From NCBI GenBank assembly GCA_964503265.1, contig CAZCYO010000004.1, positions 3,191 to 67,190 on the forward strand: a DNA stretch of 64,000 nt, written 5' to 3'. Position numbers and translations under genes: made by a program. Shown piece by piece: positions 22,615-35,149 of this stretch (positions are counted from its first letter, which is position 1; the number at the start of each line of letters is the position of its first letter). The notes under the pieces are model-generated. The model was not told the DNA's origin. It worked only from the letters and a program-made list of their open reading frames with translations, and made no database searches. This stretch comes from an uncultured Gammaproteobacteria bacterium (lineage in GTDB: Bacteria; Patescibacteriota; Microgenomatia; Levybacterales; UBA12049).

Positions 22615-22625
22615 TTGTCAGGATC

Positions 22626-23792
22626 ATGTCCTCCATTTGCCTCTGTTCGTGTCAAGATGCTCCTTATGTTCCCCGCTATCATACGTTTATGCAAACAATC
22701 GAACACTCGACAAAAGCGCCTGCACAGCTGCACCACGCGATGCATCCTGACTTTGCGCTTCATATTCCGCTTCAAGTGGCTGAAGCGATGAATTTGAACG
22801 GGAATGTAACTGGTGTTGCGACAATGCAAGACGGGATGTCTGGTAATCGGATTATCAAAGTTGATACTTATGATCGTGGCTCTATGGTTATAAAGCACGG
22901 AGACCACAGAAAAGTGGGAAACGAAATCACTAGACTGAAATTATTAGAAGGCACGCCACTTGAGCCCCATATTCCAACTGTTTTATATGCTTCACACGAT
23001 CTAGGAATAGTCGCCTATCCCCACTATGAAGGACACCAACTACGAACAGGAGTTAAAACAGAACAAATAACACAACCTGACGCTGAGAAATTGCTTGATG
23101 AGCTCATCGATATTAAAACCCAATGGTGGAGTGCACAGCCTAAAGAGTTTCAACCAAGAAAGTATGTTTCTATGCAGCGTGAAGAATGGGATGATACACT
23201 GGCTGGAATCGGGACATCTCTCTCCCTCCTTGAGGGAAAATTCGGAGTTTCTGCACGAGATATCTTAGAACGCCCTATTTCTTTTTCAGGACAAACATTT
23301 CCTCCCCTTGAGCACGTAATCGCACACGTAGGGCATTTTCTCGCTCGTCCACCAGAGTATGTGGTAACTGCCCATAATGATGCAACAGGTGCAAATATTA
23401 TCCATAATGCGGCAGATGTATCATGGACGCTATTAGATCCCGAATGGACCGGGCCAAGTGATCCAGCCGAGGCATACACGAGACTTATCAAATACATCAC
23501 TTCATCTACTGCCCTGTCAGCAGAACATGATGCACTTAACGTGTCAGGTGAACGACTCCGTGTAGCAATAGATATGCGATTTCCACAAGCTGCGATTGCG
23601 CTTCAAACTCGAGGACTACAAAGAATGGATGGAGTCTCTCATGCTTTACACGATAGGACGTTTGAAGACAGAGCATCCCACTACCTTGCAGGTTCATACC
23701 TTCGAGAGGCAGCACTTGCTCCAAAGAGAGGAGGAGCTCCTACGGCACTTTTTGCTATAGTAAAAGCAGCAGAGGCGATGGGATCACGATAA
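22626..23792 (+). CDS. Phosphotransferase-fold (APH/ChoK-like kinase) family protein, GC-elevated
   Basis: N-lobe-like 'GMSGNRIIKV' and a Brenner catalytic motif 'HNDATGANIIH' (HxDxxxxN). GC is about 50% against a background near 40%. Confidence 0.5.
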   Translation: MSSICLCSCQDAPYVPRYHTFMQTIEHSTKAPAQLHHAMHPDFALHIPLQVAEAMNLNGNVTGVATMQDGMSGNRIIKVDTYDRGSMVIKHGDHRKVGNEITRLKLLEGTPLEPHIPTVLYASHDLGIVAYPHYEGHQLRTGVKTEQITQPDAEKLLDELIDIKTQWWSAQPKEFQPRKYVSMQREEWDDTLAGIGTSLSLLEGKFGVSARDILERPISFSGQTFPPLEHVIAHVGHFLARPPEYVVTAHNDATGANIIHNAADVSWTLLDPEWTGPSDPAEAYTRLIKYITSSTALSAEHDALNVSGERLRVAIDMRFPQAAIALQTRGLQRMDGVSHALHDRTFEDRASHYLAGSYLREAALAPKRGGAPTALFAIVKAAEAMGSR

Positions 23793-23796
23793 ACAT

Positions 23797-24441
23797 ATGA
23801 AAAAAGCAATTATTTTTGATGTGGATGGAGTACTCATGGATTCAGTTCCACATCACTTTCAGGCATGGCAAAAAGCGTTCGCAGATAATGATGTTTTATT
23901 TACCTATCAAGACTATTTAGATAAAGTAAATGGACTGCCCAGACTCACCGGTGTACGAAATGTCGTACCTACCGCAACTGACGCAGAAGTAGAAGCATAC
24001 GCCAAAAGAAAACAAGCGTATTTTCTCGACGCTATTAACGATACCCCTCTCTCTCCCCTTCCTGGTGTCGTCACATTTCTTAAAGCACTACAGAGACGAA
24101 ACATTCCATTTATCGCAGCATCATCGAGTAAAAATGCACGAATACTTCTTGAAAGAGCAGGTATTTCCTTCTATTTTACGCACATTCTAACTGGTGAAGA
24201 CTTCACAAAAGCCAAACCTGATCCAGATATTTTTCTCACTGCCGCTCAAAAAATGCACATAGAACCTAAATATTGTGTCGTGATTGAAGATTCGATTCAC
24301 GGCATTCAGGCAGCAAAAAATGCAACTATGCATAGTGTCGGGATATTATCTTCACAAGATAAAGAACTAAAAAAAGCAGCTCATCTCACTATCTCATCAC
24401 TTGAAGAATACCCTATTATCTTGCAAACATATTTCGGCTGA
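23797..24441 (+). CDS. HAD-IA family hydrolase (beta-phosphoglucomutase-like phosphatase)
   Basis: Motif I 'IIFDVDGVLMDS', motif III 'KAKPDPDIF' and motif IV 'VIEDSIHGIQAAKNA'. Confidence 0.85.
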   Translation: MKKAIIFDVDGVLMDSVPHHFQAWQKAFADNDVLFTYQDYLDKVNGLPRLTGVRNVVPTATDAEVEAYAKRKQAYFLDAINDTPLSPLPGVVTFLKALQRRNIPFIAASSSKNARILLERAGISFYFTHILTGEDFTKAKPDPDIFLTAAQKMHIEPKYCVVIEDSIHGIQAAKNATMHSVGILSSQDKELKKAAHLTISSLEEYPIILQTYFG

Positions 24442-24504
24442 CATCAACCTGACAAAATAATTGGTATTGCAACCACCCTAAACGAGGTCATATAATTACC
24501 GTCC

Positions 24505-25797
24505 ATGCAACAAAATTTCTCTGAAACGCTTTATCCAGCGACATATCGTGCAGCGGACGCAAAAAAGCTTGGGGAATATATAGCAAGTAGACATACGATC
24601 GAAATAGTCGGGATGAAACGTGTCGGAATTAGTAATTTCCTTCGATATTTTCTCTATCATCCAAGCCTCATTAAAAAACACTTAGCAGATCCTACCAATC
24701 ATATTTTTATTTCTGTAGATTTATATGATTTAGTCGAAAAAGAATTGTTCGCGTTCTGGATTTTAACGTTTAAACGATTGCTGGATCAAATAGAAGTCAC
24801 AACTGTTCCTGAAGAGACGAGAAACTATGTAACGACTCTTTTTATGTCATCGATCCAAACAAAAGATTTATTTTTAACAATTGATAACTTGCGTCGTGCG
24901 CTAACAAAAATTGTTTCTTCAGGTGTGCTTCTGACTTTCTTTTTTATTCGTTTTGATCGCATGAATGAAATTTCCAGTGAAGAGTTGTTTGCGAATTTCC
25001 AAGGCATTCGTGAATCTACAGGAAATCACGTGTCATATATTTTTACGAGTTTTCGTCCACTCGAATCATTTATTCCTCAAGCGAAAATACGAAATTATCT
25101 ATCTATTTTTGAAAGTATGTATATTAAACCAGCGAGTGAGTTAGATATGGAACACGTATATGAGTCATTTGAGAAGCGCTATCACAGCGCCCTCAATACG
25201 ACGCTTGTCACAAAACTTATTCAGCTAGCTGGTGGACACGTGCAATACTTACAAATCGGACTGCTTATTTGTAGTCAGAAAAAAGACGATGTAACAACCG
25301 ATACATTATTTGAAACAATGCTTCAAGATGAGCGAATAACCCTACTTTCACAAGAAATCATCGAAAGTTTACTACCAGAAGAAATCACACTACTTAGAAA
25401 AGTGGCAAAAGGAACGCATATCGATCCAAGTGAAAAAGAACAAGGAAAATATCTTTTCGATACGGGTATTCTATCTCAACAGACTACTATAATTGAGATT
25501 TTTAGCCCATTATTAAAAGCATACTTGCTTGATAAACGAATTGAAGAAAACGAAACCGTTATCGAATTATCCAAAAAAGAACATCTTCTCTATAACATCC
25601 TGCTACAAAACATCGATGAAGTGTGTGAGAGAGAACGTATTCTGGACGCTGTGTGGCCAGAATATGAAGAATTTGGGGTTTCAGACTGGACAATAGACAG
25701 ACTTATTGCAAGACTGCGCGCAAAATTAAAACAGCAACAAAGTAACTATGCAATTGTGACTATTAAAACAAGAGGATATAAATTAGTTGAGGGATAG
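24505..25797 (+). CDS. Putative transcriptional regulator: N-terminal Arch_ATPase-like NTPase domain plus C-terminal OmpR/PhoB-type winged-helix DNA-binding domain
   Basis: P-loop-like 'IVGMKRVGISNFL' (compare archaeal ATPase 'GpRRvGKTsLl'; the Lys is replaced by Ile). Walker-B-like 'LLTFFFIRFDRM'. C-terminal 'ERILDAVWPEYEEFGVSDWTIDRLIARLRAKL...IVTIKTRGYKL' fits the trans_reg_C consensus. Confidence 0.6.
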   Translation: MQQNFSETLYPATYRAADAKKLGEYIASRHTIEIVGMKRVGISNFLRYFLYHPSLIKKHLADPTNHIFISVDLYDLVEKELFAFWILTFKRLLDQIEVTTVPEETRNYVTTLFMSSIQTKDLFLTIDNLRRALTKIVSSGVLLTFFFIRFDRMNEISSEELFANFQGIRESTGNHVSYIFTSFRPLESFIPQAKIRNYLSIFESMYIKPASELDMEHVYESFEKRYHSALNTTLVTKLIQLAGGHVQYLQIGLLICSQKKDDVTTDTLFETMLQDERITLLSQEIIESLLPEEITLLRKVAKGTHIDPSEKEQGKYLFDTGILSQQTTIIEIFSPLLKAYLLDKRIEENETVIELSKKEHLLYNILLQNIDEVCERERILDAVWPEYEEFGVSDWTIDRLIARLRAKLKQQQSNYAIVTIKTRGYKLVEG

Positions 25798-25818
25798 AAA
25801 ACAACGAGAGCGAAAAAA

Positions 25819-26067
25819 TTATGCAGTTGCTTCAGTTGGAGGAGTTTCAACGATTGTATTTTCTACAGGAGTACTGATAATTGCTTGAAGATTCTTGTAA
25901 GATCTAAGACATTTCGTGCAGAGTTTCATTCGCACCATTGTAGGACCGACTTTAACTCGAGTTGAGTGTAAATTCGGTTTAAAAACTCTATTTGTACGAT
26001 TCTTCGCGTGAGACACGTTATGTCCGTACATAATTCCTTTAAGACAATTATTGCATTTCATTCCCAT
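25819..26067 (-). CDS. rpmB: 50S ribosomal protein L28
   Basis: 'MGMKCNNCLKGIMYGHNVSHAKNRTNRVFKPNLHSTRVKVG...' matches the bL28 signature (GNNVSH.N.KT.R.F.PNL). The start is placed at the internal Met at 26067; the ORF-track start (26139) adds a non-homologous 24 aa. Confidence 0.85.
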   Translation of the reverse strand: MGMKCNNCLKGIMYGHNVSHAKNRTNRVFKPNLHSTRVKVGPTMVRMKLCTKCLRSYKNLQAIISTPVENTIVETPPTEATA

Positions 26068-27329: not shown

Positions 27330-27404
27330 GCCGACTTAGCTCAGCGGTAGAGCAGTTGTTTTGTAAACATCAGGTCGCCAGTTCAATCCTGGCAGTCGGC
27401 TCCA
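27330..27404 (+). tRNA. tRNA-Thr (anticodon TGT), CCA encoded
   Basis: Hand-folded cloverleaf: acceptor GCCGACT/AGTCGGC; D-arm GCTC-AGCGGTA-GAGC; anticodon loop TTTGTAA (one T-T mismatch in the anticodon stem); T-arm GCCAG-TTCAATC-CTGGC. The 5' half is nearly identical to E. coli tRNA-Thr. Confidence 0.8.
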
Positions 27405-27448
27405 AGCATTTCTTGGGATAACTTCTCTGTTCTTCCAAAGCTATGCGC

Positions 27449-27533
27449 GCTGGATTGGCGGAGTAGTCAATCGCATCAGACTGTAGATCTGACGCCCGGA
27501 AGGGCTACGGAGGTGCAAATCCTTCATCCAGCA
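27449..27533 (+). tRNA. tRNA-Tyr (anticodon GTA), type II long variable arm, CCA not encoded
   Basis: Acceptor GCTGGAT/ATCCAGC; anticodon arm TCAGA-CTGTAGA-TCTGA; variable arm CGCCCGGAAGGGCTAC; T-arm GGAGG-TGCAAAT-CCTTC. The D-loop lacks a GG pair, which is unusual. Confidence 0.7.
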
Positions 27534-27538
27534 CACCT

Positions 27539-27612
27539 GCCGATGTGGCTCAGTGGTAGAGCACGTTCTTGGTAAGAACGGGGTCATGGGTCCGATTCCC
27601 ATCATCGGCTCA
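27539..27612 (+). tRNA. tRNA-Thr (anticodon GGT), CCA not encoded
   Basis: Acceptor GCCGATG/CATCGGC; D-arm GCTC-AGTGGTA-GAGC; anticodon arm CGTTC-TTGGTAA-GAACG; T-arm ATGGG-TCCGATT-CCCAT. Confidence 0.85.
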
Positions 27613-28846: not shown

Positions 28847-28918
28847 AGGGGTGTGGTGAAATGGTTATCACAGCAGTCTCCAAAACTGCTTTTCACGGTT
28901 CGAGTCCGTGCACCCCTG
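28847..28918 (+). tRNA. tRNA-Trp (anticodon CCA), CCA end not encoded
   Basis: Acceptor AGGGGTG/CACCCCT; D-arm GTGA-AATGGTTA-TCAC; anticodon arm GCAGT-CTCCAAA-ACTGC; T-arm CACGG-TTCGAGT-CCGTG. The rpmG then tRNA-Trp order is the conserved arrangement. Confidence 0.85.
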
Positions 28919-28969
28919 CAATATTGTTGACATTGCCTTCCATTTCTTCAAAAATATAAGTAGAAGTCT

Positions 28970-32983: not shown

Positions 32984-35149
32984 ATGCGTGATATTCGAGA
33001 TACACTCCGGCAAGCCGGAGATCTCGTCGACGGTGTCCGCGAACTCCGTGAGGAGTTTCGCACTCCAGAAGCTACCGAACGAACCCTCACCGTAAAAACG
33101 GAGACTGGGGGCGGTTTCCTGTGGTTCGGTGGAAGGCGTGTGGTAGTCCCCGCTGATGAGGTACACGTCGTATCTGGTGGTGGTCTGCTAACTGCTTTCC
33201 TCTCGAATAACGTTGAAATCTACGGTGCAGCTGCTGGCAAGCCGGTCATTTACCGGCGGAACAAATTCACGAACGTGACCGCTATGCGGACTATCACGTT
33301 CATCGTGCCTGTCTCCGGTGTCAGGGTGCTTGACAAAAATCACGTTCCCTACACAGTGACCGCCCACGTTTCAGGGCATCTGAATGTCGAGAAAGCACTC
33401 GAAGCAGCTCGTCAGGTTGGCAACAACATCTCCTCGTTGATCTCTCAGATCGAAGAGGTCACTGATGCCGAACTTCGTACTGCTGCTGCTAAGCTGACGC
33501 TGGCAGAGGTCCTTCAAGACCAGCAAGCATTGGCTGACTCTGCCCAAACGAAAGTCAATGCCACACTGGTCGAGTTGGGCTATACGCTGAACCTCCTGAA
33601 AATTCAGGATGTCTCAGGTGAAGCCTACGAGAAGCTCGTCACCCAAGCCTTGGTGGAGGTCACCAGGGACAGCACTGTCCGCATCAATGCGGCGGAGCTG
33701 ACAACCAACCAGAGCAACAACGAACGTCTGCGAACTGAAGCTGAGGTTACGGCTGCGACCCGTCGTGGGACGGAAGCACAGGGCCTCGAAGCAGATCGCG
33801 ACGTTCAGCTCTCTAGGCTGGGAACTGAGAACGAACTGTCGATTCGGCAACACGCTCTGACGCTTGAACAAACAAGGCGTAAGAGCGAAGCAGCCCAAGA
33901 ACAGCAACGACTCGGTCTCCAGCAAGTTGAGCTCGACAAGGGCGTTGAGCTGGCTCAAGTCCAGCGCAATGCTCAGGTCAAGCAGACTCAACAGGAGCTC
34001 GATCAGAAGCTCGCCTTCCAGACAAGCGAGGCGGATGCAACCCGCAGGGCTGCTGAGCAGCAGAGGGATCAGGAGCGCAAAGCTGCGCTGACTGAGGCCG
34101 AGGCCACTCGCCTTGCTCGCGAAGAGTCCGCAAAGGCGGAACGCGATCGGGCTGTGAAGCTCGTCGAAGCAGAAGCAGCGGCACAAGCGCTTCATGTTCG
34201 AACACAGGCTGAAGCACAGGCAGCCGGTATCCTCGTTGAATCAGAGACACAGGCTGAACTGCTTCGCGCTAAGCGCGTTGCCGAAGCTGAAAGTGTCCGT
34301 GTCGATGGGGAAACCAGGAGCTTGCTGCTTCGCGCTCAACGTGACGCTGAAGGCGCACTACAAGTCGCTCAGGCGGAAAAAGTCCGCGCTGAGGCAACTC
34401 GTGCACATGATGCAGCACCCGGTCTCGCTAAGGCTGACGTTGCCGCCCGTGAGGTGGAAATTGAAGCCGCACGCGTAACCGTCCTTCGGGATAAGGGTCT
34501 CGCTGAGGTCGAAGTTGCTGGCAAGCAAAATCAGGTGGAACTTGATCGCCAACGTGGCGAGAGTGACATCCAGATTACAGCCCAGCAGCAACTCGCTACT
34601 CTCTACGCGGAAGCTCCGATCCTCGTCGAACTCGAACAGCAACAGCGCCAATTGGCGCATGCGCTCGAGCTCGCCCGGGTCGATGCAGCTGCCCGCGTGC
34701 AGATCATGCAGGCGCTCGCGCCTAACATCCACCTCCACCTCGTTGGTGACGGTGGGAAGCTCAGCCAGTTCCTCTCGCAGGTTCTGGCCTTTGGCGATGC
34801 CTATCAGACGATGGGGGGCACGCTCCCCATGCTCGCTGATGGGTTGCCAAACGGAGTAACTGTCGGCAACAGCCTCGGTGAAACCGCGATGGGCACACTG
34901 TCGCAGGTTCTGCCTGCGATCAGCGCCGCCATCAAAGAGATGGACCCAGGCGTCATGACCACCCTGACGGCGTCCCAACTACTGGACGCAGTCATCCCTG
35001 TCCTCGAAGGTCGCGAGGATGCGCTCTCTGCAGTAACCAAGCTGCGTGGGTCTCTCGCATTCAAGGCAGTAGCCAATCTGCCAGCGATGAGCGTGCTGAA
35101 GCAGTTCGGCATCGACATCACAGGAAGCGAAGCCATCACCGCTTCTTAA
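32984..35149 (+). CDS. Flotillin-like SPFH/band-7 domain protein (high-GC gene)
   Basis: 721 aa. An N-terminal SPFH-like domain is followed by a long Ala/Glu/Gln-rich coiled coil typical of the flotillin C-terminus (EAEAAAQALHVRTQAEAQAAG...). GC is about 60% against a background near 40%. Confidence 0.7.
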   Translation: MRDIRDTLRQAGDLVDGVRELREEFRTPEATERTLTVKTETGGGFLWFGGRRVVVPADEVHVVSGGGLLTAFLSNNVEIYGAAAGKPVIYRRNKFTNVTAMRTITFIVPVSGVRVLDKNHVPYTVTAHVSGHLNVEKALEAARQVGNNISSLISQIEEVTDAELRTAAAKLTLAEVLQDQQALADSAQTKVNATLVELGYTLNLLKIQDVSGEAYEKLVTQALVEVTRDSTVRINAAELTTNQSNNERLRTEAEVTAATRRGTEAQGLEADRDVQLSRLGTENELSIRQHALTLEQTRRKSEAAQEQQRLGLQQVELDKGVELAQVQRNAQVKQTQQELDQKLAFQTSEADATRRAAEQQRDQERKAALTEAEATRLAREESAKAERDRAVKLVEAEAAAQALHVRTQAEAQAAGILVESETQAELLRAKRVAEAESVRVDGETRSLLLRAQRDAEGALQVAQAEKVRAEATRAHDAAPGLAKADVAAREVEIEAARVTVLRDKGLAEVEVAGKQNQVELDRQRGESDIQITAQQQLATLYAEAPILVELEQQQRQLAHALELARVDAAARVQIMQALAPNIHLHLVGDGGKLSQFLSQVLAFGDAYQTMGGTLPMLADGLPNGVTVGNSLGETAMGTLSQVLPAISAAIKEMDPGVMTTLTASQLLDAVIPVLEGREDALSAVTKLRGSLAFKAVANLPAMSVLKQFGIDITGSEAITAS

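Follow-up and report, generated by a model that had tools for sequence, protein, structure and literature searches.

A degenerate yet strongly constrained STAND-type module in an OmpR-type transcription regulator of Microgenomates, with a candidate direct-repeat operator

What does a transcription regulator do with an ATPase module from which the ATP-contacting residues have disappeared? The question is raised by a gene in a stretch of 64,000 nucleotides (nt) of contig CAZCYO010000004.1 (hereafter called the window), which belongs to the Microgenomates branch of the candidate phyla radiation (CPR)/Patescibacteria. A first-pass annotation of this gene (Table 1), made from the letters of the DNA, had described an Arch_ATPase- or AAA+-like nucleoside triphosphatase (NTPase) with a degenerate P-loop, followed by an OmpR/PhoB-type winged helix at the C-terminus, and had suggested that the first part is either an inactive ATP-binding sensor module or a non-canonical NTPase that controls DNA binding. 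The open reading frame (ORF) was found as described. The answer to which our analysis points, and which we hold to be probable, is that the gene encodes an autoregulated transcription factor of the Microgenomates with a repurposed pseudo-STAND module.

The C-terminal domain was recognized by Pfam as Trans_reg_C (PF00486; E 7.7e-15; 55.2 bits, gathering score 26.2), as had been claimed, the match spanning profile positions 3-77 of 77, and the domain was present in all of the 35 aligned homologues that were scanned (35/35). The PDB chains of ToxR, WalR/YycF, CovR, ArlR and PhoB matched this part of the protein only, and the winged helix aligns residue by residue to that of ToxR. The recognition-helix and wing residues typical of the OmpR/PhoB fold (R..L...VW; D..I..L R.KL; T.RG.GY) are conserved, and R376, V383, W384, D394, D398, L400, R403, R405, K407, T422, R423 and G424 are invariant among the 35 sequences. 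There is no receiver (REC) domain, a Response_reg match being absent from the Pfam scan, and the response-regulator models of NCBIfam matched only through their C-terminal ~85 residues, far below cutoff. No BTAD match was obtained in Pfam scans at E<=1 to 10, and the winged helix-turn-helix (wHTH) is C-terminal, unlike the SARP order. For residues 1-345, there was no match in Pfam or NCBIfam at E<1.

The fold of this N-terminal part was approached with an AlphaFold2 model built on the homologue alignment (mean predicted local distance difference test score (pLDDT) 85.7; predicted template modelling score (pTM) 0.81). In the model, a strand beta1 (residues 31-36) leads through a loop (37-41) into a helix (42-51), and parallel strands occupy residues 66-72, 142-148, 176-182 and 202-207; after this core come a lid (212-258), a winged helix (268-332), a linker (343-351), which is the least confident internal part, and the OmpR-type domain. 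The top-ranking Foldseek match in the PDB was the Pyrococcus 'Walker-type ATPase' PABY2304 (2qen; E 1.7e-7, TM score 0.55 on the target), and the next were Aeropyrum ORC2 (1w5t being among the top matches), many Orc/Cdc6 chains, SSO1545 (2fna), clamp-loader subunits, DnaA and Apaf-1. The succession of core, lid and winged helix is common to the top fold matches, namely Arch_ATPase proteins, Orc1/Cdc6 and Apaf-1. At the sequence level the family profile matched 2qen marginally (E 0.19-0.39) and GMKRVGIS was placed on GIRRVGKS, which puts Ile42 at the position of the Walker-A lysine. The archaeal PABY2304 and SSO1545, and Orc1/Cdc6, are thus the best structural counterparts, but they have intact Walker motifs and no OmpR-type domain. 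As judged from the model, the N-terminal ~340 amino acids are a P-loop NTPase fold of the STAND/Orc-Cdc6/Arch_ATPase kind, in agreement with the first-pass annotation. A TetR-family PDB match (3lwj, E 8e-4 to 9e-3) was discarded as spurious, since it set an all-helical protein against what the model and the 2qen alignment represent as a strand-P-loop-helix stretch.

We also ran an exhaustive profile search with residues 1-345, which gave 1039 representatives at E<=1e-3, including 99 at E<=1e-30. The top group shared the altered motifs of the window protein. From about E 1e-30 downwards, the search yielded full-length relatives of 340-470 amino acids with a canonical Walker A (GxxxxGK[S/T]) and a canonical Walker B (hhhhD-E/Q-F-D). 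These canonical relatives match nSTAND1, AAA_35, AAA_16, AAA_22 and NACHT, and 6 of the 10 that were scanned have a C-terminal Trans_reg_C domain; those that bear a name come from Anaerolineae or Caldilineaceae (Chloroflexota) and are called 'winged helix-turn-helix transcriptional regulator'. A dedicated search brought at least 381 clusters of canonical STAND + Trans_reg_C proteins, and hhalign aligned the Microgenomates core family with the canonical group over residues 1-429 (probability 100, E 1.3e-73). Thus, the combination of a STAND module with a C-terminal OmpR winged helix is not unique to Microgenomates, but is found in a large Chloroflexota family with intact motifs. In the literature we found no description of a STAND + C-terminal OmpR-wHTH family.

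The model has the fold and the domain order of the STAND class (P-loop core, helical lid, winged helix). The window protein gave no direct match at E<1 to the STAND profiles nSTAND1 (PF20703), AAA_35 (PF14516) or AAA_16, and none to ATPase_2 (PF01637); AAA_35 was touched by only 6 of the 35 homologues (best E 1.5e-4) and ATPase_2 by one canonical relative (E 1.2e-3, below cutoff). Placement in the STAND class is indirect, since it passes through the canonical relatives that match nSTAND1, AAA_35 or AAA_16, some of them above threshold, and to which the family aligns with the E value just given. On these sequence comparisons, the module seems to belong with the STAND class (nSTAND1/AAA_35/AAA_16-like) more than with Arch_ATPase proteins proper.

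To describe how the ATP site differs, residues were counted column by column in 165 sequences of the core family and 29 canonical relatives. At position 42, where all 29 canonical relatives have the Walker-A lysine, 164 of the 165 core sequences have Ile. The Walker-B aspartate (position 148; Asp in 29/29) is replaced by L, I, V, N or T, with Asp in 0/165, and the next residue (149), which is E, R, Q or D in canonical relatives, is Arg in 163/165. At position 183 the sensor-1 arginine (21/29) has given way to F or Y (140/165), and at position 246 the proline of the lid motif GGHP (16/29) to V or I (151/165). Thus, the Walker-A Lys, the Walker-B Asp, the sensor-1 Arg and the GxP Pro were replaced together in the Microgenomates clade. 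The reading of the P-loop in the first-pass annotation, with Ile where the lysine should be, was therefore right, and so was the presence of a Walker-B-like FFFIRFD (residues 145-151); the aspartate of the latter, D151, is however not the Walker-B Asp, whose position is taken by I148, but corresponds to the second Asp of the D-x-F-D motif of the relatives. The degeneration goes deeper than had been noted. Because all four contact residues are replaced, the canonical ATP/ADP switch is gone, and nucleotide binding has probably been lost in this pseudo-STAND module. A third subgroup (P0238, P0242, P0243, P0262 and P0264) has Arg instead of the Walker-A Lys (GVGRS) while keeping the Walker-B Asp, and its ATP site may have degenerated independently and in part.

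There is no decay at the altered site. In the alignment of 35 sequences, G36, G41 and I42 are invariant, K38, R39, V40, S43 and N44 are at least 90% conserved, and R149-F150-D151 is invariant; over the core family, S43 is retained in 146/165 sequences, K38 in 148/165 and R39 in 154/165. The mean column entropy is 0.38 bits for the P-loop stretch 38-49, 0.37 bits for the DNA-recognition helix and 1.76 bits for the whole protein, and the altered P-loop is the second most conserved 12-residue stretch, the most conserved segment lying in the winged helix domain. Since canonical relatives have Gly or Ser at the positions of K38 and R39, these residues are gains within the Microgenomates clade and do not derive from the 'RR' of Arch_ATPase. 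In sixteen columns the core family has a residue that is at least 95% conserved and that canonical relatives rarely have; these clade-specific invariants are E7, Y10, I42, W85, K90, D94, Q118, R149, R152, T181, Y248, E276, S282-E284 and Y316. As the altered site has an entropy equal to that of the recognition helix, our reading is that the module was repurposed and is not dead. There are precedents for this in iSTAND, iSTAND2 and the inactive partner of nSTAND2, in which the NTP-binding motifs are eroded and the module is retained (PMC8195603). Compared by description, these modules exemplify a role as non-catalytic scaffold, sensor or nucleic-acid binder, but they sit in MoxR-vWA ternary or effector-linked conflict systems and have no OmpR wHTH fusion (PMC8195603). 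What is new here is a consistently disabled yet strongly constrained version of the architecture, fixed in Microgenomates and accompanied by a clear candidate operator.

The same conservation could be explained if the module were still a working, non-canonical nucleotide switch, in which a relocated basic residue (K38/R39 or R149/R152) replaces the lysine and DNA binding remains gated by the nucleotide state. The extreme conservation of the P-loop would agree with this, as would the retention of the Ser of GK[S/T] (S43) and the near-invariance of K38, R39, R149, R152 and D151, which are expected from the modelled fold at the C-terminal edge of the sheet, on the nucleotide side; moreover, deviant Walker-A ATPases such as ParA and MinD use an extra loop lysine. 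Yet K38 is found at loop position x3 and not at the signature-lysine position of the deviant Walker A, four independent nucleotide-contact elements were lost together, and no acidic residue occupies the Walker-B Asp position in any of the 165 sequences. Known STAND/AAA+ modules that have suffered such losses, namely iSTAND and iSTAND2, are considered inactive (PMC8195603). We consider a switch of this kind unlikely.

The architecture is widespread. A sequence search gave 1533 matches, of which the best 120 were all 425-449 amino acids long, with 98-100% query coverage and 44-50% identity. Where named, the homologues come from Levybacteria/Levyibacteriota, Curtissbacteria or the 'Patescibacteria group', and they are annotated only as 'helix-turn-helix domain-containing protein' or 'hypothetical'. 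When one genome per species was scanned, relatives appeared in at least 172 species genomes, mostly of Levyi-, Curtiss- and Daviesbacteria, with one strongly conserved match per genome (apparently single-copy). There is virtually no chance that two genes were fused into this ORF through an assembly error or a frameshift, a concern for which only the unusual order of the domains speaks. More than 165 homologues of 420-450 amino acids, with lengths conserved around ~430 and identical architecture, come from independent assemblies, the protein is encoded in 172 species genomes, the canonical relatives align end to end, and the model is that of a single chain with the pTM given above. Contigs with a Microgenomates-type homologue are often titled 'uncultured Gammaproteobacteria bacterium' (binchicken and SRP co-assemblies), and a few Saccharimonadales, Acidiferrales or Sulfotelmatobacter; such titles seem to be placeholders or the result of mis-binning, and not the real taxonomy.

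If the protein is a regulator, where does it bind? An operator had been suspected in the region before the gene (24442-24504). We did find a perfect direct repeat there, CTGACA-tcaac-CTGACA, with an 11-bp period, though it starts a few bases upstream of that region (Table 1). It is centred ~59 nt before the ATG, overlaps the stop codon of the upstream HAD gene and is the sole perfect match in the 64-kb window. For comparison we used 83 orthologous loci and the aligned 160 nt upstream of the orthologue start codons (76 regions, 75 for promoter geometry). CTGACA-N5-CTGACA with at most two mismatches occurred in 34/76 regions, while shuffled regions gave a mean of 0.39 and a maximum of 3; with at most one mismatch, it occurred in 21/76 (0.005 expected), and six occurrences were perfect. 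The enrichment was confined to the 5-nt spacer, and half-sites numbered 50 in the forward and 3 in the reverse orientation.

Scanning 702 kb of loci with a weight matrix gave 63 matches that reached 14 bits. Of these, 42 lay within 170 nt upstream of the gene, and the other 13 matches of at least 18 bits were also all upstream of the regulator gene and co-oriented with it. The distant upstream sites are often split from the gene by inserted genes. Thus, in loci L056 (3155-4001) and L041 (3176-4001), genes were inserted between the direct repeat and the regulator promoter; the insertion in L056 is a PIN/RHH-like toxin-antitoxin pair. The high-scoring site (25-28 bits) now lies 0.8 kb upstream. 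The repeat accompanies the regulator gene across more than 15 different upstream neighbours and is found in most deep lineages, including the outlying one to which the window belongs. A further element, TTGACn, lies in register two helical turns (22 nt) upstream of the repeat: when the regions were aligned on the repeat, CTTGAC started at offset -23 in 18/37 of them and at -24 or -25 in four more. Together with this element, the array spans about four helical turns. No CTGACA repeats were seen upstream of the canonical relatives, whose genes lie inside operons in high-GC genomes.

The repeat lies upstream of the -35 element of a sigma-70-type promoter (Table 1) whose geometry is shared by the family. 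The -10 element has the form TAnAAT in 69/75 orthologue upstream regions and is separated by 17 nt in 53/75 from a -35 element of the form TTGnnA. The distance from the end of the -10 element to the ATG is only 6-8 nt in 57/75 orthologues, which leaves no room for a Shine-Dalgarno sequence. Because the -10 element is so near the ATG, a leaderless mRNA is predicted throughout the family. The gap between the repeat and the -35 element clusters at ~10, 22, 34 and 45 nt, but the phasing test is weakened by the kinship of the species.

The half-site CTGACA resembles the Pho-box consensus, CTGTCA. The Pho box consists of two 11-bp direct repeats (PMC3978041), and the box that regulators of the AfsR type bind through side-by-side protomers has 22 bp and likewise contains two such repeats of 11 bp (PMC10936776). 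Tandem 11-bp repeats being an established binding mode of the OmpR/PhoB type (PMC3978041, PMC10936776), self-binding is the simplest reading, and we infer that the regulator binds the CTGACA repeat. PhoB/OmpR response regulators share its DNA-binding fold and site logic, but the window regulator has a degenerate NTPase in place of a receiver domain and phosphorylation site. The C-terminal wHTH would bind the 11-bp-phased repeats as tandem (head-to-tail) protomers, and, since the repeat closely precedes the -35 element of the strong, leaderless promoter of the gene itself, the protein would autoregulate. This position and the possible helical phasing lean towards activation or recruitment, although the sign of the regulation is not established.

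Several points weigh against autoregulation through this repeat. It is lacking in about half of the orthologues, mainly in one subclade (0/16), although the recognition helix is unchanged; in this subclade, a divergent pgk or aldolase promoter abuts the regulator gene. No protein column separated repeat-bearing from repeat-less orthologues, the recognition helix being identical in both, and no alternative operator was found in the repeat-less subclade, where only the promoter of the divergent neighbour (AGTATAGCA) and the start codon were enriched. Autoregulation must therefore be dispensable, or the real targets are elsewhere. Related species are not independent samples, so that the counts overstate the number of independent events, and the promoter is already near consensus, which fits poorly with a need for activation. 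As for the module, the retained S43 and the new basic loop residues K38 and R39 might still allow some binding of a phosphate ligand, and that the new invariant residues cluster around the pocket is a prediction from the fold topology.

The repeat could also be the site of another OmpR/PhoB regulator (PhoB- or PhoP-like) encoded elsewhere in the genome; the gene would then belong to that regulon and the protein would have its own targets elsewhere. Besides the subclade that keeps the protein and its recognition helix without the repeat, the likeness of the half-site and of the 11-bp period to Pho boxes (PMC3978041) speaks for this, and binding by the protein itself is a deduction from sequence. 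However, the repeat tracks the gene across many neighbours, always co-oriented and promoter-proximal, the only strong site in the 64-kb window is at the regulator gene, and the 759 kb of Microgenomates DNA that were sampled (~1% of each genome) contained no further Trans_reg_C protein. Furthermore, an autoregulatory site before its own gene is the commonest arrangement for a bacterial transcription factor. We give the involvement of another regulator a modest chance and continue to favour autoregulation.

What the N-terminal module may contribute can be gauged from known regulators. The closest are the Chloroflexota nSTAND1/AAA_35 + Trans_reg_C proteins, which have the same end-to-end architecture, a similar size (~445-470 amino acids) and, in common with the Microgenomates clade, an unusual recognition-helix signature (VSDxxIDxxVxRLR). 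They keep the Walker-A Lys, the Walker-B Asp and mostly also the sensor-1 Arg and the GxP Pro, and are usually encoded in a multi-GAF/(REC)-TCAD9/STAND-wHTH module, whereas the Microgenomates proteins, in small CPR genomes, lack both motifs and partners and are encoded beside housekeeping genes. MalT and the other LAL-type STAND activators likewise join an N-terminal STAND module (core, lid, winged helix) to a C-terminal DNA-binding domain. MalT has a helix-turn-helix of LuxR type, a large sensor/arm domain and an ATP- and inducer-dependent switch; the window regulator has a wHTH of OmpR type, no sensor repeats and no canonical ATP site. For this group, promoter binding that depends on oligomerisation is the accepted mechanism, according to work cited in PMC7159879. 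AfsR, a 'large SARP' of Streptomyces, also combines an OmpR-type winged helix with a STAND nucleotide-binding oligomerisation domain (NOD) (PMC10936776). Its NOD modulates the output of the DNA-binding domain, and ATP binding to the NOD relieves inhibition (PMC10936776). In AfsR, however, the DNA-binding domain is N-terminal and followed by BTA, and the NOD is followed by TPR sensor repeats (PMC10936776); the window regulator has its wHTH at the C-terminus, neither BTA nor TPR, and no ATP-binding residues. Because the ATP-site residues are gone, the Microgenomates clade cannot, unlike AfsR, use the canonical ATP switch.

In the autoregulation that we propose, the N-terminal module would descend from ATP-dependent ancestors in which the architecture was already the same. 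It would now serve as an oligomerisation or sensor scaffold that sets the number of wHTH domains presented to the repeat array, acting constitutively or on a ligand other than ATP or a partner. Such a scaffold role has most likely been kept, as purifying selection on the pocket is very strong and several invariant residues, basic and polar, have appeared in it.

The genomic context was examined in the window and in the 83 orthologous loci. The regulator gene is not divergent from rpmB, as had been stated, but convergent with it, tail to tail, with 21 nt between the ORF ends (25797-25819); no hairpin resembling an intrinsic terminator was predicted between the two. The rpmB ORF as listed has 106 codons and a TTG start; since the L28 domain begins at residue 28, its real start is probably an internal Met. 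The APH-like and HAD genes emphasised in the first-pass annotation are indeed both upstream of the regulator gene in the window, but a functional link with them is unsupported, for their relatives occur near the regulator in only 2/83 orthologous loci; rpmB and M50 occur in none. An operon with the APH-like, HAD, rpmB or M50 neighbours was rejected on these counts. Directly downstream of the regulator gene, on the same strand, is valS in 47/83 loci (median gap 81 nt; not adjacent in the window), and a common transcript may cover both genes there; L25, RuvC and a small TPR protein are found further downstream.

The upstream neighbours in the 83 loci included pgk (28), an aldolase-like gene (16, divergent), class-1 fructose bisphosphatase (FBPase; 8), a hexokinase-like gene (9) and DUF4012 (24), and the HAD gene of the window encodes a hydrolase of the beta-phosphoglucomutase family. 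The genes upstream of repeat-bearing loci were mixed (GH100-like, GlpX-like, GDH, GT2, TerC and five unknowns). A sugar-phosphate theme among the upstream neighbours is a weak lead, synteny among related small genomes being weak evidence. There is nevertheless a small chance that the ATP pocket was rebuilt as a sensor of another phosphorylated small molecule, for instance a glycolytic sugar phosphate, and that the protein is a principal regulator of carbon metabolism in Microgenomates, having been domesticated from an ATP-dependent STAND-wHTH protein that acted as the output of a multi-GAF/TCAD9 module, for signalling or conflict, in Chloroflexota-like ancestors. The idea of a sugar-phosphate sensor comes from the loss of Lys, Asp, Arg and Pro and the gain of K38, R39, R149, R152, T181, W85, K90, Q118 and D-E-R 275-277, all near-invariant, and that of a role in carbon metabolism from the pgk, class-1 FBPase, aldolase-like and hexokinase-like genes upstream and from the HAD gene and kinase-like ORF of the window. 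Operator-like sites occasionally flank the sugar-metabolism gene clusters.

The canonical clade has a quite different environment. In 6 of 8 canonical loci that were sampled, a gene for a giant multi-GAF sensor was followed by that of a (REC)-TCAD9/APH-like protein, with or without caspase (+EAD7), CHAT or Metallophos domains, and then by the STAND-wHTH gene; in one of the other two, a multi-GAF protein was encoded downstream instead. This three-gene order was seen in the Chloroflexota loci L086-L090 and L092 (e.g. L086 1-4356 and L090 1-4850, the latter with HATPase_c), and it appears undescribed as a module. An Inositol_P-family gene was directly downstream in two canonical loci.

These arrangements, the definition of nSTAND1 in conflict systems (PMC8195603) and the presence of an APH-like ORF two genes upstream in the window could mean that the regulator belongs to a multi-gene system of signalling or of conflict with invaders, as its canonical relatives would, and not a stand-alone housekeeping regulator. 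None of the 83 core-family loci, however, had TCAD9, caspase, CHAT or GAF-kinase neighbours (0/83), and valS, L25, RuvC, pgk, FBPase and aldolase recur in their place. PADLOC gave no matches, there is a single, strongly conserved match per genome, and the APH-like ORF, adjacent in only 3 genomes, resembles TCAD9 proteins only generically. Membership of such a system is therefore very unlikely. The APH-like ORF was also rejected as a TCAD9 homologue in its own right, its likeness being that of the kinase fold in general (E 0.007 over 98 amino acids) with no match to Pfam TCAD9.

The fold matches suggest one more possibility, a chromosome protein of the Orc1/Cdc6 kind that binds an origin or organises the nucleoid, in which case the array of repeats would be origin-like or structural. 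Orc1/Cdc6 and ORC subunits rank high among the fold matches, proteins of the ORC type join an AAA+ module to a C-terminal DNA-binding winged helix, and the repeat array covers some four helical turns. But only one short array is present and its distance from a promoter is fixed, the DNA-binding domain is one known from OmpR/PhoB transcription factors, the likeness to Orc1/Cdc6 is confined to the fold while the sequence is closest to proteins of the STAND type and not to ORC, and the ATP-site residues are lost. The cumulative GC skew was monotonic through the locus, without an inflection or any other origin or terminus signature, and an origin of replication was rejected on this ground. A chromosomal role of this sort thus seems extremely improbable, and we return to a transcription factor as the reading that we prefer.

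Table 1. Positions in the window of the regulator gene, of the parts of its product and of the elements before it
Feature	Position	Strand	Basis
Whole gene, pseudo-STAND NTPase + OmpR/PhoB-type winged-helix regulator	24505..25797	+	ATG start, ORF of 430 amino acids
P-loop NTPase alpha/beta core, ~residues 16-210	24550..25134	+	AlphaFold2 model, Foldseek, hhalign to canonical relatives
Degenerate Walker A, G36-M-K-R-V-G-I-S43, Ile42 replacing Lys	24610..24633	+	alignment to 2qen; column counts
Walker-B strand, residues 142-152 (LLTFFFIRFDR), I148 for Asp, R149 for Glu/Gln	24928..24960	+	column counts
Sensor-1 strand, residues 176-184 (YIFTSFR), F183 for Arg of relatives	25030..25056	+	column counts
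Helical lid, residues 212-258, G243-G-H-V246 for GGHP ('GxP') of relatives	25138..25278	+	AlphaFold2 helices, column counts
Internal winged helix of NTPase module, residues 268-332 (three helices, beta hairpin)	25306..25500	+	AlphaFold2
Flexible linker, residues 343-351	25531..25557	+	pLDDT <50 at 348-351; length variable among homologues
OmpR/PhoB-type winged helix-turn-helix (Trans_reg_C), residues 352-427	25558..25785	+	Pfam, PDB matches
Recognition helix of the winged helix-turn-helix (VSDWTIDRLIAR), about residues 392-403			
Putative operator, CTGACA-tcaac-CTGACA, perfect direct repeat, 11-bp period	24438..24454	+	comparison of orthologue upstream regions; weight matrix 27.2 bits
Possible second, weaker operator-like site (AGGACAtgatcCTGACA)	22616..22632	-	17.5 bits; fmt stop/APH-like start codon
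Sigma-70-type promoter: TTGCAA, 18 nt, TATAAT, 8 nt, ATG	24467-24472 (TTGCAA); 24491-24496 (TATAAT)	+	scan, 10/12 positions

Some further sites and features were observed. The weaker site in Table 1 is tentatively proposed as a second operator; its score was reached in ~4% of 64-kb sequences simulated with a first-order Markov model. Together with the repeat, it brackets the GC-elevated APH-like/HAD gene pair. In locus L052, an APH-like/HAD pair is divergent from the regulator gene, and the repeat-bearing intergenic region is common to both. Strong operator-like sites co-oriented with the regulator gene were also present in L005 (1725-1751), L047 (313-339) and L057 (685-711 and 1093-1119), at the distal (3') ends of the divergent clusters with pgk, FBPase and aldolase genes; they may be functional or may be remnants of rearrangements. 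No RNA elements were found near the regulator locus, the Rfam matches of the window being four tRNAs at 27.3-28.9 kb. These form a cluster of tRNA-Thr-TGT, Tyr-GTA and Thr-GGT (27330-27611, plus strand) and a tRNA-Trp (28847-28919, plus strand), downstream of the gene for an M50-like peptidase. A sharp GC island (32984-35149, plus strand; 0.56-0.61, compared with ~0.38 for the window) coincides with an ORF of 721 amino acids that has SPFH/Band_7 at residues 101-215 and no Pfam match in the rest. This ORF may have been acquired horizontally or be compositionally biased.

Almost nothing is known experimentally about the control of transcription in CPR/Patescibacteria, whose genomes encode few regulators. 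With a widespread regulator family, a predicted site and a leaderless promoter at hand, binding and regulation are directly testable in vitro. The combination of a STAND NTPase with a C-terminal OmpR winged helix makes up a sizeable family, annotated in databases only as generic helix-turn-helix proteins. The Microgenomates clade and its Chloroflexota relatives amount to a natural experiment, in which an ATP-gated STAND switch has lost its ATP-contact residues and is still under strong selection, and this bears on the function of pseudo-NTPase modules in NLR-like proteins generally.

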